Of a stretch of DNA of 64,000 nucleotides, positions 1-53,125 are shown in pieces. Positions within the stretch are counted from its first letter, which is position 1, and each line of letters starts with the position of its first letter. The stretch spans positions 930,001-994,000 of the forward strand of contig CP089278.1 of NCBI GenBank assembly GCA_023920165.1, in the 5' to 3' direction. This stretch comes from Curvularia clavata (Eukaryota). The translations under genes were made by a program, and so were the position numbers. The notes beneath the pieces are model-generated. The model saw only the letters and a list, made by a program, of their open reading frames with translations, was not told where the DNA came from and did no database searches.

Positions 1-1260
1 GCCATACTCGAATTTGTCTGACAGCTTTGGTACAGAAGGATTAGCTTGAACGTCGTCGTTCCATGTAGAGTTCAGTCCGATAATGGGGAGACCTCCGACA
101 AGCTCGTTTGTGTAGGTGACGTTGAAGTCCGTGGTATCGTACCATGACCAGGGGTCCAATATGCCACCTCGATCCTGTTCTGGCACGCTGTTTCTGTCCT
201 TGCCCGCCAGATTGCTGTTCGATGGCTCAGATGACGCGCTCCCTGTGGATCCGCCCCCTGTGTTGGCAGAGCTACTGTTCTTGCCTGATAACACAACCGC
301 CACGGGTATGATAATGGCCAACAAAAGAATAACAGAAAGTACACCTATCAGTATACGCTTCCGTTTCTTCTTCCGTGCAAGCTCCTCCTCTGAGTATACT
401 GTTGGTGCACCGCCTCCTCCACGCTTCTCCATCATATAGCGGTATTCAGAATCGTCGTCGATGCCTCCTTCTTCAGCCAATGGACCGCTGATGACACGCC
501 GTTTTTTCTGCTCAGTCCTGTGCTGCTTGTCCTGCCGTCTCCGTTCCCTCCTCTCTTCGGCCTCTGACTCTGTGTATCTGGATTCACGCCGCCGTCTCCG
601 CTCCTCTCTTTCATCTTCAGTGTAGGAACCCCGCTTCCTATCGAGTTCATCTTCAGTTTGACTTGCTTTCAACGCAGCTGCTTTCCGCCGTTCTTCACGT
701 CGCCGTCTCGCCTTTTCTTCATGCATGGCTGCATCGCTCTCTGCAGCACGCCGCCTGGCTTCCTCCTCCTTTTCCTGCCTCCTCTTCTCCGCACGTTCTT
801 CCTTTATCCTCTCCTTTTCAAGGTTCTTCTCTTTCCTCCTCACCTCCTTGAGATAGTCCTCGTCGTAGTCGTAGGTTCCCCAGCCTCCTGACTTCTTTGC
901 GTTGGTCTTGTCAAGCTTTGCGAGGGCTTCCAAGCTCAAGGGCGCAGAGCTCCGGCTGCCGCTTCCATCTGTCCTGGAGTTGCGACGGGAGCCCCGCGCT
1001 TTGCGGGGAGCTGGAGACTCATGTTCCGTATCGCTCTGTTGTCTCGAGCGGCGTTGGGGCCGCGGTAGCACATCTCCCTGTGAGTCGGTTGCTCGGTGGC
1101 CCTTTCTTCGCCTCCCTTCAGCATCAGGTGCCGCTCGTTCGCCATGGGATTCTCTCCGCCGGCGTCGTTCCGGGTCGGTATCACCGTGCGATTCTCTGCG
1201 TCGTCTTCGTTCATCGCCATGGGGCCGTCTACGTGACGGATCACGATCGCGGTCGCTCAT
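1..1260 (-). CDS. exgD: Glucan 1,3-beta-glucosidase D-like (GH5 family, type II membrane protein); 5' part only, runs off the window edge
   Basis: Not in the ORF track because there is no stop in the window. Manual translation from ATG 1260 gives an open frame: a long Arg/Glu-rich N-terminus (MSDRDRDPSRRRPHG...RRVISGPLAEEG), one TM helix (RILIGVLSVILLLAIIIPVAVVL), then DPWSWYDTTDFNVTYTNELVGGLPIIGLNSTWNDDVQANP, which is typical of ExgD. Confidence 0.85.
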   Translation of the reverse strand, partial: MSDRDRDPSRRRPHGDERRRRRESHGDTDPERRRRRESHGERAAPDAEGRRRKGHRATDSQGDVLPRPQRRSRQQSDTEHESPAPRKARGSRRNSRTDGSGSRSSAPLSLEALAKLDKTNAKKSGGWGTYDYDEDYLKEVRRKEKNLEKERIKEERAEKRRQEKEEEARRRAAESDAAMHEEKARRRREERRKAAALKASQTEDELDRKRGSYTEDEREERRRRRESRYTESEAEERRERRRQDKQHRTEQKKRRVISGPLAEEGGIDDDSEYRYMMEKRGGGGAPTVYSEEELARKKKRKRILIGVLSVILLLAIIIPVAVVLSGKNSSSANTGGGSTGSASSEPSNSNLAGKDRNSVPEQDRGGILDPWSWYDTTDFNVTYTNELVGGLPIIGLNSTWNDDVQANPSVPKLSDKFEYG

Positions 1261-2361
1261 TGCTAGAGGATGACTGGGTGCGAAGAGCTCTGGTATGTCG
1301 GGAATGCCAAAGCGCGGTGAAGGGTCGTGGGGCTAGAAGCACTTCATATGGCACTGGCCATCGCCAAAAGAAAACACACTGTTGACACGGAATAACGATA
1401 GGTTGGGCAGCAGACTCGGACTTGTATTCAGGCGATCAAGGGTTTGCGCATTGGTGACGAATAGGTACAATGGCGGCTGGCTGCAGCATGGGTTAAGCTT
1501 GCTGCGATGTTAAGGTGGTTGCTGGGGTGATTTGTGTTGATAGCGTACCTGACGTGGCGGAGCGGGCTGGGCACACCCTAAGCCGCTTGGGTTGCGGTCT
1601 TGGAAATGCGGCAAACAAGAACTTGGAATAAATTTGCAACCTGATTTGCTAAACAGGATTGGTATTTCTTGGGATGTACGTGCCATGCAGTGGTGGACTT
1701 GTCAGCACATACTCGAGACGTAGGCACGTGTTTGTACCCGTTGGGACCAATCTGTGCCCTCTAGTTCTTCGTGTTGGTGCATGTGTGCCAATTGCAGCCT
1801 AGAACGCAGGCGGTCAAGTCCGAAGCCATGCACACAATCCTCTGGTACGTCATGCGATAATTGCCGCAACCAACTGGAGCCGTGCATCTGGTCGGGAAGA
1901 ACGGAATGGCCAGCCAGCCCTGCATCGACGAGACGGATCTGCTCAGCCACCTGCACGGCTCGAGTGTATGACATCACAACACATGTCTATGTGTGTGCAA
2001 CCCCTTGACCCTGGCTCAAGCATGTGTAAAAATTATAATAAGAGCAGTGTATTTAGTATGTATGTGTGGTATCATAACGGAAAATGTAGAAAAGGAATGC
2101 GCAGGGGAGGGGATAGGCCTTTATGCTATCCGCCAGTAAGGCCTGCGAAGGCGCACCCGTGCCTCTCTATAAGCTGTTGTATGTGTAGTAGTGACGGTGT
2201 AAGATAGCATCCTTTTTATGGAACCAGATCAAAGTACCGCCCAAACAAAATGTGAGCCAGCGTCCATGGCAGCAAATGGCGCGGCAGTCCTGTCGGAAGT
2301 GGCAGTGCGCTGTAGCGCTCACCGTGGGAACGGATAGAAGGTTGCGAGGTCAAAGCAAGCT

Positions 2362-3458
2362 TCAAGAAGCAGCTACGCTCTGCGAAGAACCAGGGGCATC
2401 CGCAGAGACGGCAGCTTTGCCTTTGTCGGCGACCTTTTTGTCATCGTCGCTGTAGAGGCCATGCTCGTAGATGTAGTCGACGACCTTGTCAGGAATGTAG
2501 TAACGGATGCTCTTACCACGCTTGCGGAACAGGCGAATCTTGGTGGATGAGACATCGTTCTGGATGAGTTGGGGAATGACACGGATGTTGTGTCTCCACT
2601 GCTGCAGCTGAACCAGGGCGTCGTCTGTTTCAAATCAGTGATTGCCGGAAAAGCGTGTGAGAAGTTGGACATACCAATATCAGTGCCGCTGCGCTCGAGG
2701 ATGAATGCTCCGTAGTGGCCCAAGATCCTGCTTAGATCCTCGCGAGCCCAAAGTCCGGGCGTGCTCATGGTCTGGATGAGGTCGGCACCCGCGAGGAGAG
2801 CAACGTGAATGCGGCGCTTCTCGCCGTTTTCAGTCGCAATTCCTCCCAAGACTTCGTTCAGCTCATGGTCAAAATGGTCTAGCACCTTGACAGTGGGGAG
2901 ATATTCCTTGTGCAGCGGCTCCCATGGGTCGACGCCAATCCAGGTCGAACTATCCTGGACAGCGATCCTTGTCATGTTGATTCTGTGCTGTGCGGAAGCC
3001 AGTCCGGCCTTCTTGTATGCGTCGCCGACAGGACTGAAGAAGCCGCCGACGACTTCAAAGTCGGTCTCGAATTCGCAATAATCAGCCGCCTCTTCGAACA
3101 TGCGCAGATGGAGATTGGTTGGTGGGGAAAAGGAGCCACAGGAAACCAGGACGAGGGGCTGCTTGTTAGGGTTAGACAGCGTCTTTTTCAGTCTCTCCTT
3201 GGGGAATGTGTAGTTGTCGAGCGACATGACTTGGGCATCGGGGACTCCAGCGTCGAGCAGGATATCGCGATTAGTAGTCGAGGTCATGGTCGCAGCGTGT
3301 GAGGGGGTTGCGACGGGTTGCCGGAGGGCAGCGGGAGGAGACGGGCGGCGAGGAAAGAGAAGGCGGTTATGAGCAAGTGGGCGAAGAGTCGGGGCAAGGG
3401 TGGGGCCTTTTAAGGTCAGTCTAAGAGGAAGAGTCCATTGCAGGCGGGAGAGAGACAT
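2362..3458 (-). CDS. NMA1: Nicotinamide/nicotinate mononucleotide adenylyltransferase (NMNAT); alternative starts at 3458 and 3287
   Basis: Motifs GSFSPPTNLHLRMFE, GADLI and WAREDL. An intron at 2625-2674 (GTATGT...CTGAT...CAG) restores QNDVSSTKIRLF..SIRYYIPDKVVDYI, with TGA at 2362-2364. Confidence 0.95.
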
Positions 3459-4685
3459 TTATGAGTGTTTGGCTTACGAATGCTGCGATAAACGGGGAGC
3501 CCGGTCGTCTAACGGCAGGCTAGGCAGTAGTGAGAAGTGAGTCGGTAGGGGTCTGGCAGTGTCGCGGGGCTGAAGAGGCGACACCCGAGGGTTTGCGGTT
3601 TGCACGCGTGCGGCAGAAGGGAAGGCGCGCTGAGTGTTGGCCAAAGTGGGCGTTTGAATACGAGAGCAATGGTTTACTTGAGGGCGAGAGGTGCGCATAT
3701 AATATAGGCACAAGAGAGTTGCCAGGGCGGGTAAAGGGCGGCCATGTTTTGTAATGTACATTCTCTTACGGCACCGCGGTTGAGACTGTTTCCCGTGGGT
3801 GGGCGGTGGCGGGGCTGCCCAGGCCCCCTTCGCTCGCTCGCAAGATTGTGTGAGCAACCGCAGATCTGGCCGCGCACCGGGGCCCTCCGTAGCCAGCCGT
3901 TGTCGACTTCGCACTACGGAGGTTTGTACAGACATGGCGCGTCAGTCGCCTACTTGGCCCATACAGCGGCGCGCATGCAACCCAAGTCTGCGCCGTTGTG
4001 CGGGATGGAAGCACCTCACGTGGGCGATGTCGGCATTTCCCCGACCCCACAAGCCTGTCGCGGAATCAGTGGGCGCGGGCCGTGGGATGCACAGTCAAAT
4101 GATGAACAAATCCAGACTGACGAGGCGGCGCCTTGGATCCGGCCGTGGAGTAGGCCTTGTTGGCTTGACTCAACGATAGCACCAAGAGGGACGGGTGCAG
4201 CACCTCAATGGCGGGGGATTACATGTCCATGGCCCATGTGCACAGTAGAGTCAGGCTGCCGCTCCGTCATGCAGACAAGAGCCAGCCGACCTCTCTGGCT
4301 AATTTGCAAGTTGGAAAAATAAAATCAGCCAAAAATAAAATCTAATAAACCTCCGCCGAGACAAGGCAGCAGGTGCCCATGGCAGATGGTACAGCACAGC
4401 ACAGCACGCACAGCACGCAGGTTCGCTATCGATAACGGCGGGCGCTAGTCGGTCACGTAACTAGCTCCGCCGACTGGGCGTCGAGCATATCCAACCTCAA
4501 GTCTTCGCCAGACTCAACGCAGTATTACCACGTCTTTCTATACCCATCACCACCATTCCCGGGCAACTCACTCGTTTGCTCCCCCTCAATCTGCCTCCTC
4601 TCACCTCCCGCCCCACAAAATACCCGCCTTTGTGTGTTTGCTCTCTCCGTACTCGCTCGAGCAACCGCCTAATGGCGCGTTCTTG

Positions 4686-13602: not shown

Positions 13603-14202
13603 TCAAGACTGTCCATTCTTCTCTGCCAGCATCTCCTCAATGTGCTTGTTTAACCAATACTTCCTCAGTGTCTCAACTGGCATATCCTTTGCGCCCGTGA
13701 TCTGACCCCTGCACTCTGAGGTCTTGCAAAGGCAATCGAAAGGCTGCGCCATGCTCCATTCCGTGCTTGGATAGAAGAATGTCAACTCATCGCCCTCTTT
13801 CAATCCCTCGCCTTGCTCGCTAACCCTGACCTCCCATCTCTCCATGTCGAAAACCAAACTAGGTTTGCAACTGTGGTTAATGTACAAAAGGTCGCAATTC
13901 AGCTCAATGTGTAGGTCGCGTCCAGCTTGTACGGATGAGTACGCGACTGTGGCGGGGGTGGGGTTCGTGATGCGCGCGAAGACCGCACCAGGCGGCAGAT
14001 TGACGAGTGAGACGGAGCGGCTGGTAAAGGAACCAGGGTTGTGCTCTACTCGCAGCAGACGAGTAAGATCGGGTTGCACCCACGCAGGAATTTGCGTCGT
14101 GTTGTTTGAAGCTGGTGACGTAACGTGATTGGTGTTCGATTTTCCATTCGCGTGGGGGGTCGCGACTGCAGAGGTGGTCGGAGGTACAGCTGAGGGAGAC
14201 AT
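13603..14202 (-). CDS. Small stand-alone SET-domain protein with post-SET zinc cluster (putative lysine methyltransferase)
   Basis: SET motifs YINHSC.P and GDELTFFY, plus post-SET CLCKTSECRG. Likely start is MSPSAV at 14202. Confidence 0.85.
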   Translation of the reverse strand: MSPSAVPPTTSAVATPHANGKSNTNHVTSPASNNTTQIPAWVQPDLTRLLRVEHNPGSFTSRSVSLVNLPPGAVFARITNPTPATVAYSSVQAGRDLHIELNCDLLYINHSCKPSLVFDMERWEVRVSEQGEGLKEGDELTFFYPSTEWSMAQPFDCLCKTSECRGQITGAKDMPVETLRKYWLNKHIEEMLAEKNGQS

Positions 14203-16640
14203 GCTTGTGACGATGATTGAGAGGAAAATCTGGAATATGTACAATACTTGGTATCAATTGGTCTTTGCAGTTCAGCAAGGAGATGAGAAAGCTAGAGGGG
14301 CAGTTTCTCTTTAGTACTCGGCTCTTCTGACTTCTGATTGCCAGTCGACCGAGGCATTTGCTCAACTACCGTCCCACATGAGTACAAGGTCCACTTGAAA
14401 ACGTAGCCTATCCTTCTGTTCGGAGATGTCACGGCTTGTTCCATGTTCTGGTCTGCGCCTCACTGCGGTGCAGTAGCGTATCCCGTGACGCAACACTGTA
14501 CAACTCGCACTTGTAAACAAAACGAATGAAATATGCCAGCGTGGCATTCGGACTAAGGGAATCTGCAACAAAAGATGAGAGCTCCTCTACCGACCCTAGA
14601 AACGATAGATTCCGTGGTTTTCTTTGCACACTGCATGTGAAGTGTTCACAGGAGAGTGGAAAGAGAGGAAGAGAATTACACTCTCTGCTATATGTTGTGT
14701 TTATTAAACAGCTCATTCGGTATGACGGTATGCCTTCCCCGCGCCCATGCCTAGAGCATGATCGCACGGTATGGTTTTTTGATTTTCGGCGGGAACCACT
14801 TCGGCTTGTGGAAGCCCCATGAGGCCTAACTACTTGTATAGTAGTGCCAATCTAAACTGTAAATAGCAATGCTCGGTTGTAAACTTCACCTCGGCTCCTT
14901 TTCTGTGAAATAGTAGGAAATTGATTCAGTGTAAAGAACGCAATAGCGTTGTGCCAAACACTCCTGAGTCTAGCTAGCTTTAAATGTAATGTCTAGGCTG
15001 CTTCCCTTGCTAAGTTAGCTTGCAAATCACGACGCTACCGAAGAAAACGCCAGGATATCCCTTCCATATTTCAGATATAGAGGTGCCGGATTAATAACAT
15101 AGGTAGAAGCTGTCGGTTCCAGCGAGTAGAAAGGCATTTACATTAGCCTATCAGCTACAAATAACTCGTCACAATGTGACACGACATTTCCTATTGATTC
15201 AGTGGCACTGGAGATGCTACACCATTCGCTCCTTCTGCTCTATTATCTCCAGCGCCCAATTACACAGTTCCGTGCCACCACTATGGGCTGCCCATTGCGA
15301 TTCGAAGGTCTGTACAGAGAAATATTCCCTAAGCCGCGAGGTCTCTCACGCGCCTGCTTCCCAACGCTTTAAATATGATTATGTGGAATACACCGCCATT
15401 ATATTTTGCTTACACTCAGGTTTCTCTTTGTCGAAATTTTTGTCAACATTCCAAACTCCTCTAACAGCAGCCTTAGCAACCCTGTCAAACGAGCGAGTCT
15501 TAATTCTGGTACCGTGGCTTTGAAAATACACTAATGCTATATTCAAGGTTGAAACGAATGAGGTGGTTACGACAAGTGTCTAACCAGAAAGTGTATAGAG
15601 GGTTTTTGTTGTTTAGCAGAAGGAAACTCGATTCACTCGTGGCCCAGAGAATCGCAATAAATACTTCACCAGATTAATGAGCTGTAAGCCCACTGTACAA
15701 CACTCCCCCAAAGCATTCCTTCCAATAGGCTGAACTTCAAATGCTTGAACAAAAGATCAGCTCGTCCCTATACGTACGTCATGTACATTTCAGGTAACAG
15801 CGCTGTCATCATGGTCTTACCGCTAGTCAGTCGGAACACGACACGCGTAATAATCACTACCTAAGTAACTGAAGGGGCGATGATCTCCAGAAACATTTAG
15901 TCTATGTGGGATAAATCATGCATACTCTTACTCTTACTCACATTTGTGAGAAATTCAACCTAAATATGTAATCATCGCTTGGGCCATGACTCTTAATACT
16001 CGGACTAGATATTTCAACCTGATAATCTGCTGCATTCGGCGCTACTATAGAAGCTCACCGAACATTCCACCGCCTAGATAGTCATGTACCTGTTACAGCG
16101 GGCTGTTGATCCCTTTCTCTACACGTCAGCTGTGCCGCCACTAGTACGAGGTACTCACATCCATATTCATAGACTTTTTCATCTAGGAATGGCTTTTCGA
16201 TTGCGACGCGGCCTCTTCATTCTTGATACCGTGGCCTCTAAGCGATCCTTATTGTATCAGAGTGCTTCTCCTGTTCCTATAGTCATCCTGGTAGAAACAT
16301 CTTTTTGGGTGTTCTTTATAGGGTTTATGATGCATGTTGAAACCCATCAAACCACCTATCAAGTCAGTGCATGACACCTTTCCTCGTGTCTTCTCCACTT
16401 TATCGTTCCTGCATACGGTCCGACCCAGCATTATATACACGACCCCAATCAATGAGTTGCATGTACCACCTTACTGGGGAAGTACGAGACTCAATACTGG
16501 TGTGACATAGGTATATCAAACGAGAGTAGAACCATCCCCTCGGCTGAGCAGTATTTAAACCTCCGCTCATCATCGCTAAGTGACTATCACACAGCAACAA
16601 GATCGCCTTTCTCACATCTGCAATTATTTCCGCCTCAAAA

Positions 16641-16923
16641 ATTCGTTTAATTCTTCTTTCAATCGCACTCGCTTCCGTAACTTCTGCGGCTTTTCTCGAG
16701 CCCGAGAACGATGACAACCCGACTCCGTCTAAAGTGGTACCGGAATTCGAAGCAAGCCCCAAGGTACCTTCCCTCCTTCGAACTCATCGAACTTCCTGGC
16801 ATAAAAACTAACCGAAACTTTTTCCCTTTTTCTCAGAAACGAGCTTTGGGGTGCGATGGGGCTTACTGCGACTGCGTAAAAAATTGCTCTACCGTCAATC
16901 CTCGCGTGCCAGGATACCCGGCC
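16641..16923 (+). pseudogene. Disrupted small secreted cysteine-rich (effector-like) protein gene
   Basis: TATTTAAA at about 16552. CAAAA-ATT sits where an ATG is expected, followed by the signal peptide (M)RLILLSIALASVTSA and an acidic pro-region. A phase-0 intron at 16764-16836 (GTACCT..CTAAC..CAG) leads to a Kex2 KR site and ALGCDGAYCDCVKNCSTVNPRVPGYPA. The frame then runs into the inverted repeat at 16924. Confidence 0.7.
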
Positions 16924-17235
16924 GTCGACCAACCCTCTTTAAAACCTCCCTGTTCGTTCGCGACAACGTACAGCCGCGATGAGCTCGGCGGACTATAGAG
17001 TGAGCTAAGAAGGCAGAAATTAAGACTGCAGCTATAAAAGGTTACTTTAAGGTGGGAACTGTGCAGTTCGGCAGTTTCTCCGTGTAGATAGCAGGAGCGT
17101 CAGAATATGGCTAATCAGCTGTGCATCTTAAGCGGTGTTAGCCATACAGTAGTGTGCTGAGATGTCTGCGACCCTTGCTCCGAGTTGTGGCTGAGGACGG
17201 TGCCTCTGAGAGTAATACTCTAGGCAGATCTGGTT
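16924..17235 (+). repeat. Left long inverted repeat
   Basis: Aligns by eye to the reverse complement of 21140-21438. Shared blocks include GTCGACCAACCCTCT, CCCTGTTCGTT, AGAGTGAG, AAGACTGC, TTTAAGG, TGTGCAGT, TTTCTCCG, TCTTAAGCG, GTGCTGAGATG, CTGCGACC, TGTGGCTGAG and AGGCAG. Confidence 0.9.
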
Positions 17236-17499
17236 TATTCTAGGCCCTGCGGACAGGCGTCTGTCCAGTCGCGCACACAAGTTGCAAGAAGCTACCTCTC
17301 CAGCTTATGTCAACCAACCTTCTCAACAAGTACTAATTAAAATAGATGATGCGTATTTAGCAAATAGACTGACTACATTAATAAACTCCTTGAGAAGCTA
17401 GCCATGTAAGATTGGTAAGCTTAAACGCATGTAACTTCGCGATCTAGTAACAGACAAAATAAACGCGTTAACTAACTAGTTAACTATAAGTTGCTGAAT

Positions 17500-20400
17500 T
17501 TATTCTGCTTGCCAAACATTTAGCGCCTTAAGTGACGACCGCGTATCAGGGTGTTGCCTTCCAAGGATGTGCTGGCGCGACTGAAAGCATTTTTGCATTA
17601 TCGTAAGGGCTTCCTCTAGACGATCTTGTGAATGCAGCGTATAAGCAAGATTGTGCATGCTGGTCAGCGTGTCTGGATGCTCTTCGCCAAGCACTCTCTT
17701 GCTCGTCTGCATCACTTGAGCGCCTAGCTCTTCGGCCTTGCCCCAGTGCCCTTGGTTCCAGTACGTCGACGCTAGGTTAGCCATGCTAGTCAGCGTAGAA
17801 GGATGCTCGTCGCCAAGCACTCTCTTACGAGTCTGCATTACTTGTATAAATAGCTCTTCAGCCTTACTCCAGTACCCTTGGTTCCTGTACGTCGACGCTA
17901 GATTAGCTATACTAGTCAGCGTGTCTGGATGCTCGTCGCCAAGCACTCTTTTGCGAGTCTGCATCACTTGTACAAATAGCTCTTCAGCCTTGCCCCAGTA
18001 CCCTTGGTTCATATACGTCGCCGCTAGATTAGCTATACTAGTCAGTGTGTCTGGATGCTCGTCGCCAAGCACTCTCTTGCTCGTCTGCATCACTCGAACG
18101 CCTAGCTCTTCGGCCTTGCCCCAGTGCCCTTGGTTCCAGTACGTCAACGCCAGGTTGGCCATGCTGGTCAGCGTGGAAGGATGCTCGTCGCCAAGCACTC
18201 TCTTACGAGTCTGCATTACTTGCATAAACAGCTCTTCAGCCTTGCCCCAGTGCCCTTGGTTCCTATACGTTAACGCCAGATTAGCTATACTAGTCAGTGT
18301 GTCTGGATGCTCGTCGCCAAGCACTCTCTTGCTCGTCTGCATCACTCGAACGCCTAGCTCTTCGGCCTTGCCCCAGTGCCCTTGGTTCCTGTACGTCAAC
18401 GCCAGATTAGCCATGCTAGTCAGCGTAGAAGGATGCTCGTCGCCAAGTACTCTCTTACGAGTCTGCATTACTTGTATAAATAGCTCTTCAGCCTTACTCC
18501 AGTACCCTTGGTTCCTGTACGTCGACGCTAGATTAGCTATACTAGTCAGCGTGTCTGGATGCTCGTCGCTAAGTACTCTCTTGCGAGTCTGCATCGCTTT
18601 CACAAACAGCTCTTCGGCCTCTTTATACCTCCCATCATCGTACAGAGTTACGGCACATTTCCATACAAGATCCAGCCTTTTCTTATCGTTTCCTTCTGTC
18701 TGAATGTGCGAAAGAGCATACAGGGCATGCGGAAGTAAGCGCCTCCACTTGCTTCTGTTAATATAATCACCGTTCGGAAACACCTGGACTAACTGTGTGA
18801 TGACGTGTCGAGTCCAATGTTGGAGCTGTCCCTGAGCTTGTAGTCTAGCACGTAGGGCATCATGCACTAGCCTATGGACGTCTAGTGCTAATTCGGCCGG
18901 GCGTCTAGTGATAAGCGCATACTTTTCTAGCATCTTAATGGATTCTTCCCGGGCCTGCGGAGACGATGCCTCAAGAAGGTCGAGCGCAATATCTTTTCGA
19001 TCCACGCATGCAGTAAGGAAAAGATAGTCTGCAGCGATTGTGTTTCTGTGGCGAACTTGGCTGATAGACAGAGATAACGTAGCAGCAATGGGGCTTTCTA
19101 AACCGCAGTTCTGCGGCCTGTGCTCAAGCAAGTCATTGTTGTACTCGTGAACTATGCTTTTGTACTTGTCGAGTTGTGTTGCGTACTCTTGCACTGTCAT
19201 CTCACTAGCGCTCATACACGCGGCTGCATGCACGATTGCTATAGGCAGGTATGAAAGCTCTCTAAGCAAGAGGACCGACTGTTGTTGCTCTGTGGGCGAG
19301 AGTGGCCTTGACAAACTGTTTTGCAGCATTCTTAACGCCGTGTCTGCCGTTAGCTCATGTAGCGCTATGGCATTTTGTCGAGCAAGCGTCTCAGCTATTT
19401 TGGTGCTTGTTGTTGTGAAGATCACAGAACATCGTGTGGACTGTGGCAGGTAGTCAGCTAAGCCTGTCGCATCTACCGTTGACGAGCTGCCAGATAGTAG
19501 AGTGATGTCATCTACATTGTCGAACACCAGCAAACACTGCCGCTCCCTCAGCTCTACCACACAGTGCTTTATGATCTGCTTTATATCTGCCAGATCATTG
19601 TTATCCCATCCAGGGATACTAAGCTTCTGCGCAACGCTTATATACGATTGGTAGAGGCTATCCTTGTGGCTCGCATCCATCCAGAACACCGCGCAGTCTA
19701 TATCGTGTTGCCTTGCTCGGTGTGCAACCTCGAGTGCAAGCTGTGACTTGCCCGTTCCGCCAGGCCCAACGATCGCTAGGGTAGTAGTGCTTTGCTTGTT
19801 GCTAAAGAGCTTCGCCTCTAGCTCCGCGAGCTGCGGTTCGCGGCCCACAAAAGACTTGTTCCGCGAGAACGGAATAATAGACGGTGCGCTGCTAACTCCC
19901 TGTATCTCAGCCTGCAGTCTTTCTAATGCGCTCTCCTGTCCTTCGCCATATGTTGCGGGTATAGAGACGTCAAGAACTCCAAGTAGACAGTATACTATAT
20001 CCTCTTCCTCAGTTGTCACACGATTTTCGGCCCATCGCATGCGCTCAGATGTGCTGAACTGGTTGAGGGGACAGTTGCGCAGCGCTGCAAGCGGAATGCT
20101 AGTGATGGTGTTGAGTAGTTGATCAAGCGACGTTTTGTCGCCTATGCGCAGTCCTTCGCGCGAAAAGAACTCCACGGATAATGGCGCAATTAGCTCTTGC
20201 AGTGTCCATCCGCGAGTAAACCACGCGCTTGCACGGAATGACGCCTCCCAGTCGCTGCGCTGCACTAGCTCTGTTACAGTCGACACTGACACATCTGACA
20301 GAAACACGTAGCATCGTGTCGCATTCTTGTACCACTGAAACATAGAGTTGATGGCCCTTGAGCGCTCGTTATTGTTCCATCGGTCGATGCAGCATGTGTC

Positions 20401-20622
20401 GATCCAGAAGTACTGCAGCTCGTCCTGTACCGCTTGCCTGGCGCAAAACATAAGCTTCTTATAGCCTTCCGCTTTCTTCTTGTACATCTCGCTTGCTATA
20501 TCTTCGATGAGAATCTCCGAGTCGCTCCATCTGTGTGATAGGATAGCGTAAGGTGGAATACGTTTGCCGCTAAAATCTGTCAGGACGAGCCTGCTCAACG
20601 CGTCAAAATGAAGGAGTCGCAT
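17500..20622 (-). CDS. Fungal NLR: HET domain - NB-ARC - TPR (1040 aa, intronless)
   Basis: HET motifs YAILSHRW, YFWIDTCCID and WFTRGWTLQELIAP. Walker A GPGGTGKS, Walker B LLVFDNVDD, LSYLPIAI and VHRLVH. C-terminal 42-aa TPRs of the HPDTLTSMANLA type. Confidence 0.95.
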   Translation of the reverse strand: MRLLHFDALSRLVLTDFSGKRIPPYAILSHRWSDSEILIEDIASEMYKKKAEGYKKLMFCARQAVQDELQYFWIDTCCIDRWNNNERSRAINSMFQWYKNATRCYVFLSDVSVSTVTELVQRSDWEASFRASAWFTRGWTLQELIAPLSVEFFSREGLRIGDKTSLDQLLNTITSIPLAALRNCPLNQFSTSERMRWAENRVTTEEEDIVYCLLGVLDVSIPATYGEGQESALERLQAEIQGVSSAPSIIPFSRNKSFVGREPQLAELEAKLFSNKQSTTTLAIVGPGGTGKSQLALEVAHRARQHDIDCAVFWMDASHKDSLYQSYISVAQKLSIPGWDNNDLADIKQIIKHCVVELRERQCLLVFDNVDDITLLSGSSSTVDATGLADYLPQSTRCSVIFTTTSTKIAETLARQNAIALHELTADTALRMLQNSLSRPLSPTEQQQSVLLLRELSYLPIAIVHAAACMSASEMTVQEYATQLDKYKSIVHEYNNDLLEHRPQNCGLESPIAATLSLSISQVRHRNTIAADYLFLTACVDRKDIALDLLEASSPQAREESIKMLEKYALITRRPAELALDVHRLVHDALRARLQAQGQLQHWTRHVITQLVQVFPNGDYINRSKWRRLLPHALYALSHIQTEGNDKKRLDLVWKCAVTLYDDGRYKEAEELFVKAMQTRKRVLSDEHPDTLTSIANLASTYRNQGYWSKAEELFIQVMQTRKRVLGDEHPSTLTSMANLALTYRNQGHWGKAEELGVRVMQTSKRVLGDEHPDTLTSIANLALTYRNQGHWGKAEELFMQVMQTRKRVLGDEHPSTLTSMANLALTYWNQGHWGKAEELGVRVMQTSKRVLGDEHPDTLTSIANLAATYMNQGYWGKAEELFVQVMQTRKRVLGDEHPDTLTSIANLASTYRNQGYWSKAEELFIQVMQTRKRVLGDEHPSTLTSMANLASTYWNQGHWGKAEELGAQVMQTSKRVLGEEHPDTLTSMHNLAYTLHSQDRLEEALTIMQKCFQSRQHILGRQHPDTRSSLKALNVWQAE
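17540..18640 (-). repeat. 126-bp (42-aa) TPR tandem array: 7 near-identical core units plus degenerate flanking units
   Basis: GGATGCTC(G/T)TCGC recurs at 126-nt spacing from about 17675 to 18557. Confidence 0.95.
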
Positions 20623-21139
20623 GACGTGTGTGGCCTTATTTTAGTTAAGAAAAGAGGAGAGCGAGTAATTTTGCTAAGTTAGGTGTATAACAACAAGACC
20701 ATGAGGAGGCAGAGCAAGCTTAATCTAGGCTCCCATGAAGGCAGCCTTGGGAGGCAGTGCATCTAGCCAGGCTGAGGGGGCTGAATACGTGGACCACTCA
20801 GGGCCGTTCCGCCTCACAATCTGGATTTGGACAGTGTTTGCCTTGTCGATAACTATATCTTAGGAAACGTGCACGCATAAGTAAAGCGTAAGCAGGCAGA
20901 GTAGTTATACAAGCAAAGGTTATCGTAGTAGCTCGCCCCAACACTACTGTCAGCGGAACAGCTTCTGTCACAACCTAGATCGTGACAATGCAGAACCAAT
21001 ATTGTATCGCATGCGCTTTAGACGTGATATAACATACTTTAGAGGAGAAGTTGAATGCGCTGCTAAAGAGCAGTACTGGATTGAGCTTGCCACTCCCTAG
21101 CAGTAAACGCGTATATACGACTGGGAAGTGCTGCCGGAA

Positions 21140-21438
21140 ACAACAGCTGCCTGGGGCACAATGCTCAAAGCCGTAGTGCTCAGCCACAGCGCGCAACAAA
21201 GGTCGCAGGCATCTCAGCACGCTACAGTAGCTGAAAGCTCGCTTAAGACGCTGCGTTGTAACGATTCTACAGTCCACGCGGAGAAATTGCCGGACTGCAC
21301 ACTCCGTGCCTTAAATTGACTTTCTGAGGCGGCAGTCTTCATCTTCGACTTCTCAACTCACTCTCTGACCCGCCAAGCTCTTGGCGACCATGCGTAGCCG
21401 CAAACGAACAGGGGGGTTCTTAGAGAGGGTTGGTCGAC
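21140..21438 (-). repeat. Right long inverted repeat
   Basis: Its reverse complement aligns with 16924-17235; many of the differences are C/T or G/A transitions. Confidence 0.9.
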
Positions 21439-21845
21439 AGCACTAATAAAAAGAGTGACAGCACAGTTGGCAACGCGTTCTCTGATGTCGGATGGGGACG
21501 CAGTAGGAGAACGAGGACTATAATATATATTCACACTAGACCGGCCAGTTCATATATACCGTGTGAACATGCCGGGCGTCCCGGCACGTGAGGATCGACA
21601 TTAATGAGGCCTGTAAAACTACTTGCAAAAATGGGCACTGCTCCAATGCTTTCTCAGCAGGATCTTCTTACCCCCCTGAGTGTTCTAAGCAGGTTGGTGG
21701 TTAATTACAACATGTAGTTAATAAATCTACATTATCTACGTCATCTGATTCTCAGCGACTCGAACCAATTGATCTTAGGGTCGAGATCCATAGTCCAGCC
21801 CCTTGCCCTCGTGCATATTTCATAACTCCGTCGATTCGCATCTGT

Positions 21846-42194: not shown

Positions 42195-45100
42195 TCAACA
42201 ATATCTCACCGGCTTATGCGAATTGAAAACAAACCCAAACGGCACCCAAACAAATGCAAACAGCGCAATAGTCGTTATCGTCGGAACAGACGCATTCTGC
42301 CAGTCTCCCGGTGACTTGGTCAGCCAATAGATCCAAAAGGCAAAACTCGACAGTAGCGGGATAAGGTGGTATACGCAAAGCATCCAAAAAGAGAGTGTGT
42401 ACTCCGCCTCAATGCCCCACGCAGTGTCTTTGAGAATCTGCTTGCATTGAACGGGGAATTCGCTCTTCTTCTTAGGTATGCAGGTTATCTTGTCGCAGAG
42501 AGGTGGGAGCTGGAAACAGTCATGTAGCCATGGTCCCAACAAGGACCACTTGCAGTCGTCTTCGCAAGATTGCAGGCATACTGCAAACAAGCCTGGTTCA
42601 ATTAAGGGAATTTTTCCCTGTGGAGGTTTGGGATTGTAGTCATAATCGTCTGCGAATCCGTTGGAATCTGGTAGCCCCTCGCCGAACGAAAAGACGCGAT
42701 TGACATTGAGCTTTTCGAACTGGAGAACGTTGGTTTTATAGCGTTAAGTGGGATGTGAAGGGAGACTCACTTTGACGAAATTGCAATATTGGAATTGGAA
42801 GGGAGAAAGTAATCGCTGAAAAGACCACCGATGCTTCTTGTATCGGCTGTTCAATTCTCTGAAGAAGCGTTGGTCGTTCATTTGGCTGCAGATTTCGATC
42901 TGCTCAATCTCTAGTGACCTTCGCATACCTTGGATTCCGAAGACGACTCGGGTAGCCGCCTTTGGTGCATTTGGAGCTGGAATGGTTGGGGTGCATCTTT
43001 GTGCCTGCAGATTATTTCCCGCTCCATTATTGCTGTTGTTATTTGGTACCACACCAGATGCGTTTGTTTCGTGCGTTGCTCCAGAGGACGAAGTTCCAGG
43101 TGTGTTATTGCATGATGGTGTGTAAGCCATGGCTGCTTTTGAAGAGGTATTTCCAGATGTGGCGCTTCGTTGCCTGTTACTTTGCATGGATCTCAAGGAT
43201 GTTCTGAACATATCTTTTAGCAACATGAGCCATCCAGTTGAAGACCTCGCCACACAGCAATGACAGTTTGGTGGATGCTCGGAAGCTAGATCTAGAACCC
43301 CGCGTAAGTTTTCCGCCTGTTCCTGTGTCATCCTGGTGTACAGCATCCTCTTATGCAACTATTACAATTAGCATGACATGAGTAGCTGGTTGAAGTTTCT
43401 GATACGCACTTTCCACTGGAGATGTTGCTCTCCAATGTCCAAGTTTGGAATTCTTGGTGCCAAGGGCCACCAGTCCCACTTGTAGCCAGTATGTGATTCC
43501 AAGAATGCTTTCGCGTTGTTAACCCAACTTGTGTCGTTATTTTCGATAACTTGTAACGAACACTTCGGCGTTGTCTCGACTATTTGACGAAGAGAATGCG
43601 GCAACATCAAAAGTCGGATGTCCAGCACGAGGTTATGAAACGCTAAGCCTTGCTGCAGAAATCTTTCCGCTCCGTCGATATTGGTGAATTCATCTTCAGC
43701 CTCGGTCTCCGGCTCAGTATCAAACCCGCTATCGCTGCCACCGTCTTCCAACTGGAAATCGTTGAAGGGTGGTTGCTGAATAGCTAAAGCTGATCTTTCG
43801 TACTCTGTACCCTGCATTCTCCCCAACCAGTCCTCTAGGTATTCCTTCTCCGCTGGTTGCGCCAAGAACTTTTCCAGCGATGGCTGTTCGTTTCCGTCCT
43901 CAACTCAAGTCGATCTGCAATGCCTTCAGCTATGCCTACTCTATTTCTTCTCGATTGAAGGACTCGGGTGACTGCTTTTTCGGTTGAACTTGCTGCCTCT
44001 TTCAATAGTCTCTTGTAGTATGATTTCAGGATTCTTCTGTAGTTTGAAATGAACCGCCTTCTCTGAATTTTCTGAAGAGCCACTTCGTGTAGTAAACGCA
44101 GATCATCTAGCTGTGCAAAGAACGTCGCAAGATGATTGACAGCAAAAAGCTCCGCCCTCGACCTTGTTGTAGATATCTTTGAACCGATACTCTCATTATC
44201 TGATTGTATAGACCGAATGTCATCTGGGTATGTTTCCTCGTCGCAATAGCCAGGGGTTTGGTCAATTGACTGGTTCCCTGTAAGAGAGTCGTGCAGAACT
44301 CCTGGATCCGGTAGTGATGGAGATATGACACTGAGTGCCTGCCTCTGTGAGGCATAACCAGAATCACTTGGTGCAACGTTCGACCCGGTATTGGACTTAG
44401 AAAACTCAAGAATAAGATCCACGATAGAAATATGCCCACATAATCTAGCCGCATTTATCGCACTTCCAAAATGACCCCCTTGTGCGCTAAAGTCGGCGCC
44501 GTTGTTGAGTAGTATGCTGACTACGTCTAAGTGACCCTTAGAAGCAGCTGCTTGAAGTGCGCTGCCGTAACGTCCACCTTGTGCGTTAACATCAGCACCT
44601 TGTTGTAGTAGAAGCGTCGTGATTGTACCTAAGCCTAGATGTGCTGCGTAATAAAGCGGAGTTGCTATGCTCTCTAGACTCCTTTCCAAGTCTGCCTCAC
44701 TAAAACGATCTCCATAGTTATATAATCCGATCCAAATAGGAAGGATTAAATTTTCTTCTGAGAAGACGCGCATCGCCAACGGGATTAAGTCCTCTTTATC
44801 ATCTCCTGCCATTTGAAAGTGCATGACCCAAAACTTCGCTGCGTAATTTAGAAGTGGAGATGCCTTGAGAATACCGTGAGGAAATGGTTGCTGCAGCAGA
44901 TACTCTAAACAATCCTTTGCTATTGTTTTTTGACAATTCCCTTCTTCTAGACTGTACTGATACGCCCGTCCTTGCTTGATCCTGTCGGAAAAAAGATACT
45001 GCCGGATAGAACAGGATTGCGGAAAATCGTAAGGACGCTGTCGCGCAACCATGATATCTTGCTGTTCCGAGCCCACAATTCCCATTTTACTTAATGAATG

Positions 45101-47011
45101 GTCGATGAGAGCATGTGTGAGAGCTGTGGAAGCAAAATTTGGATATTCTGCGAGGTCAAGAGCAATAATTTCCTCAATGTCGAGGGATTTCAGAGGCCGC
45201 GCCGAAAATGCCAACCACTTTAATATACGCCGAAAATTTGAGGCGGTTTTCTGACCTATTGAGCAAAGTATACTGTCATATTGATCATCTTTCCATTTTG
45301 CCAAGCGCTCGTCATGGCGTAGCCTTTGAATATCTACCTGTATATCTTCCATAGACACAACTTCTCGCGCATTGAAATAGCGTCCCAGCGGTTTCGCAAG
45401 CTCTACGTGTTCTCGACTGGTCACAAGGATGTGTATTTTATTAGAGTGCCAGTCCATTATTTGTTGAATTGTCCCCATTAATACATTACGTCGCATCCGG
45501 CATTCATCGAGAGCGTCCAGAACAATGTAGATGTGGGTGAAATATGGCCATAGGTGCCTCAGACATCTTAGAAGTGCGCCAGTTGACCGTTTCCAGCTTT
45601 TCAAGTCGGCTTGGTGAGCTTTGAAAAATACCATAATATCATCAGGTATCGTAGTCAAATTTTGCAGAAGTTGGTGGAGCAACGAACGAAGCATTGGTCT
45701 TGCATCCTGTTTTTGTTCATCATTGATGTCGAAATAGAAATATGCCGCCACCATGCTCGCATCACCATGGCAGTGTTGCTGTAGATTTTCAATCACAGTG
45801 GCACTCAAGATTGTTTTTCCAGATCCTGGGGTTCCTTGAACCCATAATCTTGATGAAACCACGCGGTCTTTCCATTCTCTGAATTCTGCACTATTCAGAA
45901 ACCATAGTCCAGTGCCAGGTTCTCGTTGCTTGAGAGCTTTTCGGTAATTTGTGGAAGGATCAGGTGCCAAAAGCCAGCGATAGATCTTGTCACGCCGATC
46001 TTTGTCCTGTGTTGCTTTCTGTAGCTGCTCCAGTGCGCGTGCTTTGTCCTCAGCGGATGCTGTAAGCGTTGAACATCCAAACATGCCAAGAAGACAGTAT
46101 ACACTGCTTCTTTTGCAGATTGCTCTTCGACGTTGAGATAAAGGCAAGACTACTTGAGGATCTGAGAGAGGCAGATTGTTGAGTAGAGACAAATCAGTCA
46201 CTGATAAAGTCTTGCTAGCGCACCCCATGGCCTCTTGTATAACATTCAGCAGCGACGTTCTGTCCCCTAGCCGTGTTCCGTCTCTAGAGAAAAACTCCAC
46301 AGATGAAGGTACCACAAGATCCAGGAACGTATAACAGTGAGTGAACCAAGTAGATTTCTTGAAGGCCGACTCGCCTTCGCCCTCTAAGGACCTACTATGG
46401 ACGTCTGAGAGGAGGACATAGCAAGTTTGAGCGTTCTTAAGTAGTTCAAATGTAGCGTCGATAGTCTGTTTTACCTCCGAGCTGTGTGCGCGGTTGACGC
46501 AGCAAGATTCAATCCAGAAGTAATTTAGGCCATGATCCTTCGCCTGTTGTGCGCAAAAATGAATCTTTTCCCAGCCATTCCCTTTGATGGCACCAATGTT
46601 CCGTCGAAGACGAGGACGAAGACGCTTCAGATCATTATAAGCCACATCGCCGTTCTCCGATGCATACGAGACGACTGCGTACGGAGGAATGTCATCATGA
46701 AGAGTGTCGAAATGTTTCAGGGTGAGTTTCCCATCACGTGTGATATGTAGCAGTCGCATGGGTTGGTAGGCGAAAACGTTTTGTTCGTCTCCTAACCCAA
46801 CGAGCGAACTATCAACCCTCATGTCCATGACCGTGTCGTCGACCTTCCGGCTATCGCTGAGCACCTCGAAGTTATCATCGAAAAGCCAGTCAAGATCCTC
46901 GCTTTCAGAACTCGCAAGTCCGTTGCCGGCTTTGAGGTAGTTGCCGTTTGGCTCACTGGTTTGGTAGCCGCCGTCTTTGTCATACTGATTGCCGGCCGTA
47001 TCCATTGTCAT
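42195..47011 (-). pseudogene. Degenerate HET-NACHT-ankyrin NLR fused to a C-terminal two-TM uncharacterised domain; frameshift at about 43901 (a truncated product ending at 43835 is still possible)
   Basis: HET-like region from 46759, Walker A GTPGSGKT, Walker B IVLDALDE and ANK repeats (TPLYYAAHLG, SALQAAASKG). A -1 shift near 43901 joins EDGNEQPSLEKFLAQPAEKEYLEDWL...WDWWPL. Introns at 43359-43409 and 42720-42770 lead to WGIEAEY..FWIYWL..GDWQNASVP and TGA 42195. Confidence 0.75.
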
Positions 47012-48329
47012 GGGACGCTGGTCAGTGTTGTCACCCCGATTTGGGCATATGCAGTGCCGATATCTGGATGTGGAAAGGATTTCTAGATCTTCGCAGCAAA
47101 TTGGAAGAGACGATACCGAATGATTGATTCGCTCGTGTAGATTATGTGAATTGAGCTGTGAGGGAGTAGCTGAGTGCAGCTCTTGTTGGGGCAGGCTGAA
47201 TCTAACAGCCAGCCTGGTAGGCTCAGCCACACTGCGGGGTGCAAGGCAAGGCACGCAAGGCTGAAGGGTTACAATCGCGATTGGCGGCCTCTCATAGCGC
47301 GAGAGGAAGTCTTTGCCTCACCTACGATCTTCGTAAGCTGTAGCCTGCTGTAAGCGCCTGTTAAAACTCTGCACAGCTGACTTCCTCTGCTGTAGACTCG
47401 AAGTACAGCGCAGCGACGACGACCTAGATGCAGAATGTTTTTAAAGATAATCGAGAATCATCAATAAGATGGTCGTGTTTTGAGATTACGAGATTAGAAG
47501 AGATTCGCATGGTCAGCGGCGGACGTAGGTTTCATGATGGCTACATTTTAGACCTAGATAGAGTTGAGATTCTAACGAAGGATGTAATATATTATCAAGA
47601 TCAACATGTCTTCATTTCAGCTGACAAGGCGATAACGTAATAGAATTGTAGTTAGTAGAGGTATTGTTAGAGAGTCGAAGCATGACAAGCGCTTAACAAA
47701 GTATAGAATAGCTAATAGTATAGTTACAAGTCTTATATACAGCCCGGCAGTTAGGTAGAGGAAGTCACAACCCTATTGCCAATGACTAGTTTGTTTATAG
47801 GAATAAACCTGTGTGTAGGCTTAAGTCACTATATGTTTGATGCGTTTCTTATTTTCTTCGGGACATGGGTGTCTTTCGCCACACAGGGTGAGGTTAATTG
47901 GTGATTGGTGGTGGCGACGCCAGTAGTAGCCTGGCGATGCCAACAATTACACTAGGGAGTTTTCACCACTCCTCGCTGCAGCATTATCAGCCGTACTGTG
48001 ACAACTCTCTGATTTCGTTGGCTCAGTGCTGCTGGCACTTCAGCTATGGCTATGCCGTGAGGCGCTTTCGTCGCTCCCTCCGCATAGACTGATTGGCTGA
48101 CTACTTGCTTATAGCGCCTAGTATGCAGTATCACTAACCAAACTCTACGCTCAGCTGAATCGAAACCTAGACTAGTGATCAGAACGCGATACCTCACAAC
48201 TAAGCCACGACGATCCAGTTTCGCACTAGGGAATGCCTTAAGCCAATCCACCCAGATTAAATCACGAATATTTAGAGCAGTTCAGCGCCGCCCGGCATAG
48301 GTCAGACGCTGCCGCCCTCTCTAGCCACC

Positions 48330-51300: not shown

Positions 51301-53125
51301 AGACCTCATCCCGTCATGCAATCCCTTTTCATGGGATTGTGATCTTGATTACCCACTGCTCGGAAGCAGCGATAGATTCAATGCGTTGGCTAACATAATC
51401 GAATCGGAACGCTCTGTAGACGTGCATTGTCGCATTGCCAAAACTGCAGGATTCATCGACGAGGGAAATATTGCCGCAACAGAATGGAACAAAGCGATCG
51501 CGCTTGCCGAAGTCACTGGAAAAAATGATAGATTGAAGGACCTGTATTACCAGTCTATCCAGTCCCTCACAGATATTCGCCTCCTGCAGTGCGAACCTAT
51601 AGTGGTTGAATTGGCCGAGAAATATCTGGCTCTGGATTCCTCCAATGCTAGGATTCGTGCATGCCTAGGGCTAGCCCGCTTGCTACACCTTGGGGACATC
51701 AATGGAGCCATCGACGAATACCGGAGGGCTCTATCACTGGATCCCCGAGATAACTCAATTTTAAAGGCATTGATGGATGTTCTGTGGGACCAACGTGATA
51801 TGAAAGGGATTTTGGAGCTGTTCGAAAACGGAGACAATGACCTCACCAGTTATCGAATTCGTGCTTATACGGAAGAAGACCTCTACCAGGACATTCTGGA
51901 GCTAGCAGCACGAGACTTAGGGAAGATGGATTTTCTGGCCAAGTGTTACGAAACTGCGATCTCTGCCAATTGGGCGGAGCCGCCAATTGGCAAAGAATAT
52001 GATTCACTAGAGGATGACGGTTGGGGAACGTTCGGAGAAACTTTTGGTAACCTAAACCAAAAGGAATTCTACTCAGGGGGTACCGCACTTCTCAAATGCC
52101 GATTAGCTCATCTCCACGGCCGATATCGAGGTGACTCTAGAGCAGCCCTTAATTTGTGGACGGCGGTCTTTCTCGAGCAATCTGAGATATTCGGACTTGA
52201 TGAGTTGAGTAGTGAATATACTACGAGAACCATCCCTATGCTTATGGACACGTTCGCTGAACTGCTTTACGAAGATGCGCTGAAGTCGGACGGCTGCGTG
52301 AACGAAGAATCACTCAGGTTACTGGAGCGGCTGCGTAAGCGGCATGATTGGTTCCGCGAGCAAGATGATTTTGGATCATCTCTCACTAATCAGCGGAACC
52401 TGAACCTGTTCCTGGCCAAACTCTACCGTCAAACAGGACGAGATGCGGAGGCAAAAGAGCTGCTTAGAGAACAGTTTGAGCGAGGCATCGAGCTCCTCAA
52501 CGATCAGATCGATTGGAATGATAATTACGGTTACCATGTTCTCTCCAAGATACTGTTCACCTGCCATCAGAAGGATAATGCCGCAATTGCACAGTCTCTC
52601 CGTCGCTACTATCGGTACCAGCCGGAAGAGTACGAAATCATGGATGGAAATGAAACGAGTTTGAGTACTCCCAACACTTCAGAGGGAGAACAGACGAGCA
52701 CCGAAGAATCACAAGTCCCATCCGAAGATGATAGCAACGACGATAGCGACGACGATAGTGACAGAGAAGAATTTCCTAGAGGGATAGTAGCACCCTATGG
52801 CATGACAGGCTATGAATTCGGATGCTCTATGTCCTACGACTGTCCCGATTCCGCGACTCTGACTAGGAATTCGCCGTTCTTTGTCTGCATGACCTGCGCT
52901 GAGGTCCAGTTCTGCGAAGGCTGCTATGCGACGCACACTTCTAGAATCGATAAAAGCACAGCGTACAAAACAGATGCAGAGGATAAGAAGCGTATCTCAA
53001 TATGCAGCCCACGACATGAACACATCAAAGCCCCAATGGATGATTGGAGGCTAAAAGATGATGTCATGACGATTGCGGGCAAAGAGGTACCAATTGAACA
53101 ATGGCTGGAAACGTTGAAGCTCTAG
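48330..53125 (+). CDS. Fungal NLR: helical NACHT N-terminal domain - NACHT - TPR-like - C-terminal ZZ-like zinc finger
   Basis: DLWREA...HAALPWGCVKF N-terminal domain, Walker A GSPGCGKS, LVFDGIDE, GMFLWV, TPR-like helices and CMTC..QFCEGCY...C...HEH. Introns at 48678-48732, 48947-48998, 49143-49197, 49282-49336 and 51244-51298 keep the frame open. Confidence 0.88.

Follow-up and report, generated by a model that had tools for sequence, protein, structure and literature searches.

A complete NLR gene as the sole cargo of a probable TA-inserting, non-autonomous DNA transposon with long terminal inverted repeats in Curvularia clavata

Fungal repertoires of NOD-like receptor (NLR) genes are highly variable in copy number and location, and the cause of this variability is an open question. 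Giant Starship elements with NLR cargo were reportedly described by Gluck-Thaler et al. in 2022. The stretch considered here, hereafter called the window, is a 64,000-nt piece of the genome of Curvularia clavata (contig CP089278.1, positions 930,001 to 994,000, forward strand). It contains an NLR gene of the HET-NB-ARC-TPR type that is enclosed by long inverted repeats, the arms of what appears to be a small mobile cassette. Coordinates refer to the window unless a sister locus is named.

In the excerpted text of PMC13449251, NLRs appear as known cargo of giant Starships, which are the only vehicles for NLR movement named there; NLRs with highly conserved repeats are described as more often associated with transposable elements, and these elements are suggested as possible movers. 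In Pyrenophora tritici-repentis, according to the excerpted text of Manning et al. 2013 (PMC3538342), an open reading frame (ORF) located between the terminal inverted repeats (TIRs) of a Tc1/Mariner element has been amplified to 46 copies, with the transposase retained. ToxhAT, in the excerpt of PMC12506042, is a 14-kb transposon of the Pleosporales that carries the ToxA effector, and the Pyrenochaeta genome paper (PMC6034849) reports, in its excerpted part, 42 HET genes close to repeats, without a mechanism. A description of an NLR as the sole gene of a small TIR element was not found in searches of the full text in PubMed Central and bioRxiv (subscription journals, supplements and repeat databases lie outside this scope).

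We propose that a family of cut-and-paste, non-autonomous DNA transposons is represented by one copy at positions 16892-21601 of the window. On this view its members have long TIRs and insert at TA, and the only gene they carry is a complete NLR of the HET-NB-ARC-TPR type together with its upstream region. To this reading, and with it to the statement that the NLR cassette is or was transposable, we assign a probability of roughly 0.8. Our confidence that the mover is a Tc1/mariner/pogo-type enzyme is lower than that in mobility itself, because no partner was found.

Receptor gene, arms and true ends of the window element

The only ORF between the arms (17500-20622, minus strand) is intact and intron-less and encodes 1040 residues. 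Its Pfam domains are HET at residues 25-122 (E 7.9e-12), NB-ARC at residues 264-488 (E 1.1e-14) and TPR_10 in nine stretches (E 3.2e-124), and a Walker A motif is found at residue 286. The protein has, in other words, the N-terminal HET, the central NB-ARC with Walker A and the C-terminal TPR region of a HET-NB-ARC-TPR receptor. The nine TPR units of 42 residues (126 nt) stand in tandem at 17519-18700 (minus strand) and are nearly identical to one another; compared with a reference copy over 300 nt, the copies show 64-94% identity, and the six inner ones 81-94%. The receptor has 5594 homologues, of which the named best matches are all from Pleosporales, and the window is fungal DNA. From its family membership only, the protein may be expected to act in non-self recognition or cell death. 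The segment 17297-17499 (minus strand) is assigned, by position only, as the 3' untranslated region of the gene.

Blastn joins the two arms (16921-17236 and 21138-21441) in one inverted alignment of 319 nt with 69.6% identity (E 1.9e-34). This agrees with the length of about 300 bp and the likeness of about 70% given in a preliminary description of the locus, which had also rightly spoken of an intact HET-NB-ARC-TPR gene bracketed by inverted repeats. The alignment consists of three collinear inverted pieces (16921-16950/21412-21441, 16943-17105/21256-21418 and 17123-17236/21138-21251) that are 71-83% complementary, and a global alignment of the arms gives 225 identical columns out of 323, with 49 transitions, 30 transversions and several indels. 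Identity peaks at 87% in the outer 30 nt of the repeat as first described, where the outermost 15 nt match perfectly, as had been stated. No other long inverted repeat occurs in the 64-kb window, both pairs from the repeat scan being parts of this one, and blastn found no third arm copy there (next best match E 0.23).

The preliminary description let the repeats end at GTCGAC and took GTCGAC or TCGA for the duplicated target, and both points have to be given up. The right arm extends 160 nt beyond GTCGAC, and we place its end at 21601 because the homology within the arm family stops there at one shared base. This arm is of full length (21105-21601, minus strand; nhmmer profile 1-558, E 6e-128) and ends in the family terminus. 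The left arm keeps a 29-nt terminus at 16892-16920 (plus strand), which had been missed, and an inner part of 376 nt (16921-17296, plus strand; nhmmer profile 191-565, E 5.7e-95) that pairs with 21105-21441, while about 130 nt between the two are lost. The element spans 4710 nt, from 16892 to 21601. Its two termini conform to the type ATGTCGATCC... and have TA beside them; comparison of the termini places the two target-site copies at 16890-16891 and 21602-21603. The left terminus (16892-16921) matches the right one at 23 of 30 positions (P about 4e-9), and the nhmmer arm profile gives 27 nt there with an E value of 5.6, which is not significant alone.

Since the left arm has a true terminus and an inner part without the roughly 130 nt in between, GTCGAC is the edge of an internal deletion in this arm, and neither a terminus nor a target site. 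After the true termini had been located, GTCGAC, TCGA and CG were dropped as candidate target duplications. The duplication is TA, contrary to the earlier view that the TA rule of Tc1/mariner elements does not fit the termini.

Sister loci and the host sequences split by the cassette

A search of metagenome contigs with the first 640 residues of the window NLR returned 32 loci, the five closest of which are called L001-L005. Their NLRs share 70-72% protein and 73-75% nucleotide identity with that of the window, and 84-90% nucleotide identity among themselves. In all five, a member of the arm family lies upstream of the NLR in constant orientation to the gene (blastn; nhmmer arm profiles), and the arm-NLR architecture is thus found at six different sites, including the window. 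L004 has a second, inverted arm downstream of its NLR (561 nt, 78% identical, E 4e-130), intact arms of the family being about 560 nt long. Starting at the first base of the arm, L001 and L004 align collinearly over arm, spacer and NLR (3137 nt, 86.8%). The L002 contig begins within the arm, with the terminus beyond the contig end, and L003 and L005, which show no homology past the TPR region, are 3'-truncated copies. The upstream region of the window NLR (20623-21104, minus strand) contains a block at about 20702-20820 that is kept in the sister elements (blastn, 71-83% in L001-L004 and L006). The NLR reading frames are open in L001, L002, L005 and the window, and L003 and L004 have two in-frame stops each within the first 1914 nt. 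About half of the private changes in these two copies are C>T and G>A, without a clear CpA context, and repeat-induced point mutation as the source of the stops is not supported by the context of the base changes.

At all seven termini of the family the homology breaks off at one common base, beyond which the flanks show no relationship. Averaged over the 21 terminus pairs, the inner 30 nt are 83% identical and the outer 40 nt 25%, which is the random level. The flanking dinucleotide is TA at six of the seven termini and TG at the remaining one (L005). With up to six mismatches, a 24-nt terminus occurs seven times in 524812 positions (0.2 expected by chance), each time at the end of an arm. 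The start codon lies 898-1058 nt from the terminus in the window, L001, L003 and L004, and 544 nt from it in L005, the arm of which carries an internal deletion.

Arms and gene diverge together. Between sisters the NLRs are 84-90% and the arms 75-86% identical, and between the window and the sisters the values are 73-75% and 59-64%, respectively. It follows that arms and gene have been stably associated for a long time, and that no one-off capture in the lineage of the window is involved. The terminal 30 nt, at 60-90% between the window and the sisters, are much better kept than the arms as a whole, and this stronger conservation would fit an end that is bound by a transposase. The first 50 nt of the sister arms contain, as seen by eye, a 10-nt word in two copies at a spacing of 19 nt (for example at 217-270 of L004), which may represent a second transposase-binding site. 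At 21572-21601, in the right arm of the window, the first word sits in a short palindrome and the second copy is absent (34-nt gap). A DNA pattern made for the most conserved core of the arms had no match in the metagenome contigs.

Two other kinds of sequence in these loci were considered. A 94-codon stop-to-stop frame, reading inward from the terminus, is present in three arms (L001 1387-1668, plus strand; L003 220-501, plus strand; L004 3991-4272, minus strand). It was rejected as a gene, since it does not begin with a start codon and is missing in the upstream arm of L004, and it is probably a by-product of the similarity between the arms. Upstream of more distant NLRs (48-57% identity), short inverted or dispersed repeats of 140-190 nt and 70-90% identity are found (L007 4607-5121, L008 4154-4745 and several places in L009); they have no relation to the arm family and do not bracket their NLR genes.

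The flanks of the L004 element, 213 nt on the left and 123 nt on the right, encode parts of a pogo-type transposase. The left flank matches DDE_1 (E 7.8e-5), and among its 91 homologues are many proteins from Pyrenophora, Alternaria and Stemphylium that are named pogo or DDE-1. On the reference P0123 the left flank corresponds to residues 284-354 and the right flank to residues 356-396. The two halves lie one residue apart in eight of eight full-length pogo references, in all of which the residue between them is W, and at this position L004 has a codon composed of one TA and the next base. Because the pogo halves rejoin exactly, with one TA kept, on all eight references, the whole arm-gene-arm unit has entered a TA of an already mutated pogo copy, duplicating this TA. 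Target duplications of 8-9 bp or 3 bp are absent at L004, the flanks sharing only TA.

In L001, a Tc1-like transposase ORF (625-1385, minus strand; DDE_3, E 4.5e-15; partial HTH_Tnp_Tc3_2) lacks its N-terminal 80-90 or so residues, and it is truncated exactly at the TA that adjoins the NLR element. Two of the five sister copies, L001 and L004, are accordingly located within other transposons. In L005 a fragment of a pogo transposase (3405-3602, minus strand; about the first 46-66 residues) follows directly after the NLR stop, at the place where the 3' arm would be expected, and this copy may have lost its 3' end through a pogo insertion or a rearrangement.

In the window, excision of 16892-21603 fuses 17, 1 and 33 codons into one open frame with 10 Cys and a stop at 21703-21705. 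The left half, read from the sequence, covers 16838-16889 (plus strand; 17 codons, 5 Cys), possibly preceded by an intron and an upstream exon with a signal-peptide-like stretch. The right half covers 21604-21705 (plus strand; 33 codons and stop, 5 Cys) and is in frame once the element is removed. Open 33-codon windows with at least 5 Cys amount to 611 out of 127802 in the 64-kb window (0.48%), and open 51-codon windows with at least 10 Cys to 0 out of 127694. The insertion would thus have split a small Cys-rich ORF and kept the receptor gene intact. That the unit interrupts another gene, as the preliminary description had it, holds to the extent that the frame rejoins on removal, though it has no homologue and no evident start codon. 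Upstream of this frame, at 16552-16764, a TATA-like box and a hydrophobic, signal-peptide-like stretch without ATG are present, which may be the decayed start of a gene for a small secreted Cys-rich protein that was inactivated by the insertion.

Mobility, the mobilising enzyme and alternative explanations

A 2-bp TA duplication combined with TIRs is the defining signature of the Tc1/mariner/pogo (ITm) superfamily. In the present family the TA duplication is seen in the rejoined pogo sequence of L004 (8/8), on both sides of the window element and at 6/7 termini. TIRs with conserved ends are present in L004 (561 nt, 78%) and in the window (70%, with 23/30 at the terminus), and copies stand at six separate sites with unrelated flanks (flank identity 0.25), the sister loci coming from one genome or several. 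None of the 52 window ORFs of at least 110 aa matches a transposase, recombinase or reverse transcriptase (E<=1e-5), which bears out the earlier statement that no such enzyme is encoded. As the element encodes no transposase of its own, we infer that it moves, or moved, in trans. The gene for a DDE transposase of the Tc1/mariner/pogo superfamily would lie at another place in the genome, and this enzyme would bind the conserved terminal 30 nt or so of both arms, excise the whole cassette and reinsert it at a TA, which is thereby duplicated. New NLR loci would arise by such reinsertion and would then diverge, decay or become fixed. With six sites, common termini, the precise insertion in L004 and the restored frame in the window, the non-autonomous, gene-carrying element dispersing NLRs that had been proposed initially is upheld.

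The window copy itself retains an intact receptor gene, and the insertion most likely is old, has become fixed and no longer moves. Its age and probable immobility follow from arms that are only 70% alike, from the internal deletion in the left arm, and from its presence at the same site in a related organism, D. The occupancy of the site was examined in sequencing runs, sixteen of which contain part of the stretch; four of these (X1, X3, X5 and X6) were compared, all as contigs, so that run depth is a sum over contigs and gives no copy number, and the uncovered stretches in X3 and X5 carry no information. In X6, which represents organism D, a 13.4-kb contig covers 16344-17682, from the left flank across the left end to within the gene. 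In X6 there is probably a bridge over the right junction too, a piece of record 27 of this run beginning 30 letters inside the right end, where the threshold of 31 leaves it uncounted. In X1 (organism A), extra contigs with differing letters cover the right arm as far as 21567 or beyond. This run therefore contains at least one further arm-like sequence, which runs past the repeat end described earlier. The joints 17196->18054 and 17875->21188 have sides of only 38-50 letters.

A number of observations weigh against a mobile cassette. A transposase with matching termini was not found in the window or in the 32 loci, and the arms and termini are without similarity to the adjoining pogo and Tc1-like elements. 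Besides the window, only L004 has both arms. In L003 and L005 the homology ceases behind the TPR region, with 3.5-5 kb of contig still to follow, the contigs of L001 and L002 stop before the 3' side, and the L005 terminus has TG in the place of TA. The best identity between copies, 84-90%, gives no sign of recent activity. Four of the five sister loci come from one assembly record, which may represent one organism or several, and all were retrieved by NLR homology, so they do not determine whether the arms are exclusive to NLRs or how many copies a genome holds. The 33-aa right half of the Cys-rich ORF has one match (E 1.1e-6, to an ankyrin-repeat protein), which was judged spurious, and the left half is too short for a search. 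Finally, the window copy is syntenic in organism D, at about 5-7% divergence, and an empty-site allele was not seen, no joint skipping the element among the joints listed (15 of 98). The preliminary description had named synteny in relatives together with no empty site as a sign against its proposal, and for the window copy this is the pattern that we find, which counts against the mobility of that copy. At the level of the family, the recurrence around other NLR genes that it had also called for is found.

The alternatives differ in how they deal with these points. One is that the cassette is mobile and is moved by an agent other than a Tc1/mariner/pogo enzyme, be it an undescribed family of TA-targeting transposases or passive movement within larger elements. 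We consider this improbable, though it is the strongest of the alternatives. No partner transposase was found, the termini are unlike the neighbouring pogo and Tc1-like sequences, and arms of about 560 nt are unusually long for the superfamily, all of which speaks for it. On the other hand, the TA duplication with TIRs, measured in L004 as well as in the window, is the signature of exactly this superfamily, and in the case of a larger carrier the homology would not be expected to end at the same base in seven termini, which indicates that the moved unit is the cassette itself.

A second option is that the NLR family has spread by segmental duplication and ectopic recombination, the arms being flanking DNA that was once duplicated in inverted orientation. 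Fungal NLR families do grow by duplication, and the joint divergence of arms and gene, the missing 3' arms of L003 and L005 and the synteny of the window copy in a relative can all be accommodated in this way. Recombination, however, predicts neither base-precise boundaries nor a 2-bp duplication, nor the exact rejoining of two host frames. The seven termini share one end point with unrelated flanks beyond it, the pogo sequence rejoins across the L004 unit in eight of eight references, the Tc1-like gene in L001 is cut at the TA, and the window frame rejoins across the element. This explanation is thus largely refuted, and we regard it as very unlikely.

The least probable idea, that a short dispersed repeat (a miniature inverted-repeat transposable element (MITE) or a solo long terminal repeat) inserted twice independently and that the resulting arms happen to flank an ordinary resident NLR, could appeal to the extra contigs that fall on the right arm only in the runs compared and make the arms look unequal. 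Against it, the orientation of the arm to the gene is constant at all six loci, and the start codon lies 898-1058 nt from the terminus at four of them. L001 and L004 are collinear over arm, spacer and gene, and the arms show neither an inner terminus nor a separate duplication. For L004 and the window the idea is refuted, since their flanks can be rejoined only by taking out arm, gene and arm together.

If the cassette is a transposon, as we propose, the NLR might be no accidental passenger in it. A whole clade of Pleosporales HET-NB-ARC-TPR receptors could be transposon-borne and have co-evolved with its own long TIRs, with much of the expansion and turnover of the repertoire being due to transposition. 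We offer this wider idea tentatively and think it doubtful rather than probable; it is suggested by the arms and the gene diverging in step, from about 90% to about 74% nucleotide identity. The element itself may even profit from the cell-death receptor, which could, for example, act as an allorecognition 'greenbeard' or as an addiction-like module that would favour carriers after hyphal fusion.

Surroundings, significance and comparison with known systems

Several other features of the window can be described briefly. The SET-like ORF named in the preliminary description (13606-14253, minus strand) lies 2.6 kb from the element and has no Pfam match at E<=1e-5, and the segment between the two (14300-16500) is without long ORFs and lower in G+C (43-48%). 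Two more NLR-type genes are found at 43838-47317 (minus strand) and 49267-53122 (plus strand), with NPHP3_N/NACHT and ankyrin domains and with NPHP3_N and TPR domains, respectively; neither gene is bracketed by an inverted repeat. Within a CCCH zinc-finger ORF, at 55705-55914, there is a 66-nt direct repeat with 71% identity and a distance of 144 nt between the copies.

Gene-carrying non-autonomous DNA transposons are already known, and what is new here is a small TIR element with an NLR as its only gene. It offers a small vehicle with ends defined to the base: a TA-flanked, long-TIR cassette with one complete NLR, found at six sites and once inside the gene of another transposon. Mobile NLR cassettes of this kind would provide a mechanism for rapid turnover of fungal immune-receptor repertoires, and a whole functional gene of host type, in place of gene fragments, on a non-autonomous eukaryotic DNA transposon would be unusual. 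The 30-nt terminus can be used for counting cassettes in Pleosporales genomes and for seeking the mobilising transposase, and insertion polymorphism in population data could be compared with incompatibility groups or defence phenotypes.

Among the known systems, Stowaway-type MITEs are non-autonomous and duplicate TA, and they are presumably moved in trans by Tc1/mariner-type enzymes. They are, however, non-coding and under about 800 bp in length, whereas the window element measures 4.7 kb and holds a 3.1-kb gene. The Pack-MULE and Pack-TYPE elements of plants are likewise non-autonomous TIR elements that are moved in trans with host-derived coding sequence inside. They belong to the Mutator or CACTA type, duplicate 9 bp or 3 bp at the target and carry mostly gene fragments, in contrast to the TA duplication and the whole gene with its upstream region in the present family. 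The label 'Pack-like' that was first given to the element therefore fits only loosely: it is apt for a non-autonomous, gene-carrying element, but not for one that carries a whole gene and its upstream region and no gene fragments. Membership of the Pack-MULEs proper was rejected, as the flanks share TA only, in place of the 9-11-bp duplication that goes with Mutator-type TIRs.

ToxhAT, which is linked to the hAT superfamily, resembles the window element, as far as the excerpted description goes, in being a TIR-bounded DNA element of the same fungal group that moves an ecologically important non-transposon gene. It is larger and contains several genes including an effector, whereas the window family carries an immune receptor. 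With the Starships the family has in common that both are fungal mobile elements carrying NLR genes. Starships, however, extend over tens to hundreds of kb, contain many genes and are moved by a DUF3435 tyrosine recombinase encoded at one end, the 'captain', whereas the members of the present family are 4.1-4.7 kb long, with one gene and a TA duplication. Membership of the Starships was likewise rejected for the window element, given its 4710 nt, its single gene and the absence of any recombinase family among the 52 window ORFs.

The closest published case that we found is the transduplication described in the excerpted text of Manning et al. 2013 (PMC3538342), which comes from the same order, Pleosporales, the order of the window being judged from the named best matches of its NLR. 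According to that excerpt, the P. tritici-repentis element has kept its transposase ('both coding regions') beside a captured ORF with an osmosensory coiled-coil domain, and almost identical copies make up 31 of its 46. The family described here differs from it in having no transposase, arms of about 560 nt, old copies that are at most 90% identical, and an NLR as its sole gene.

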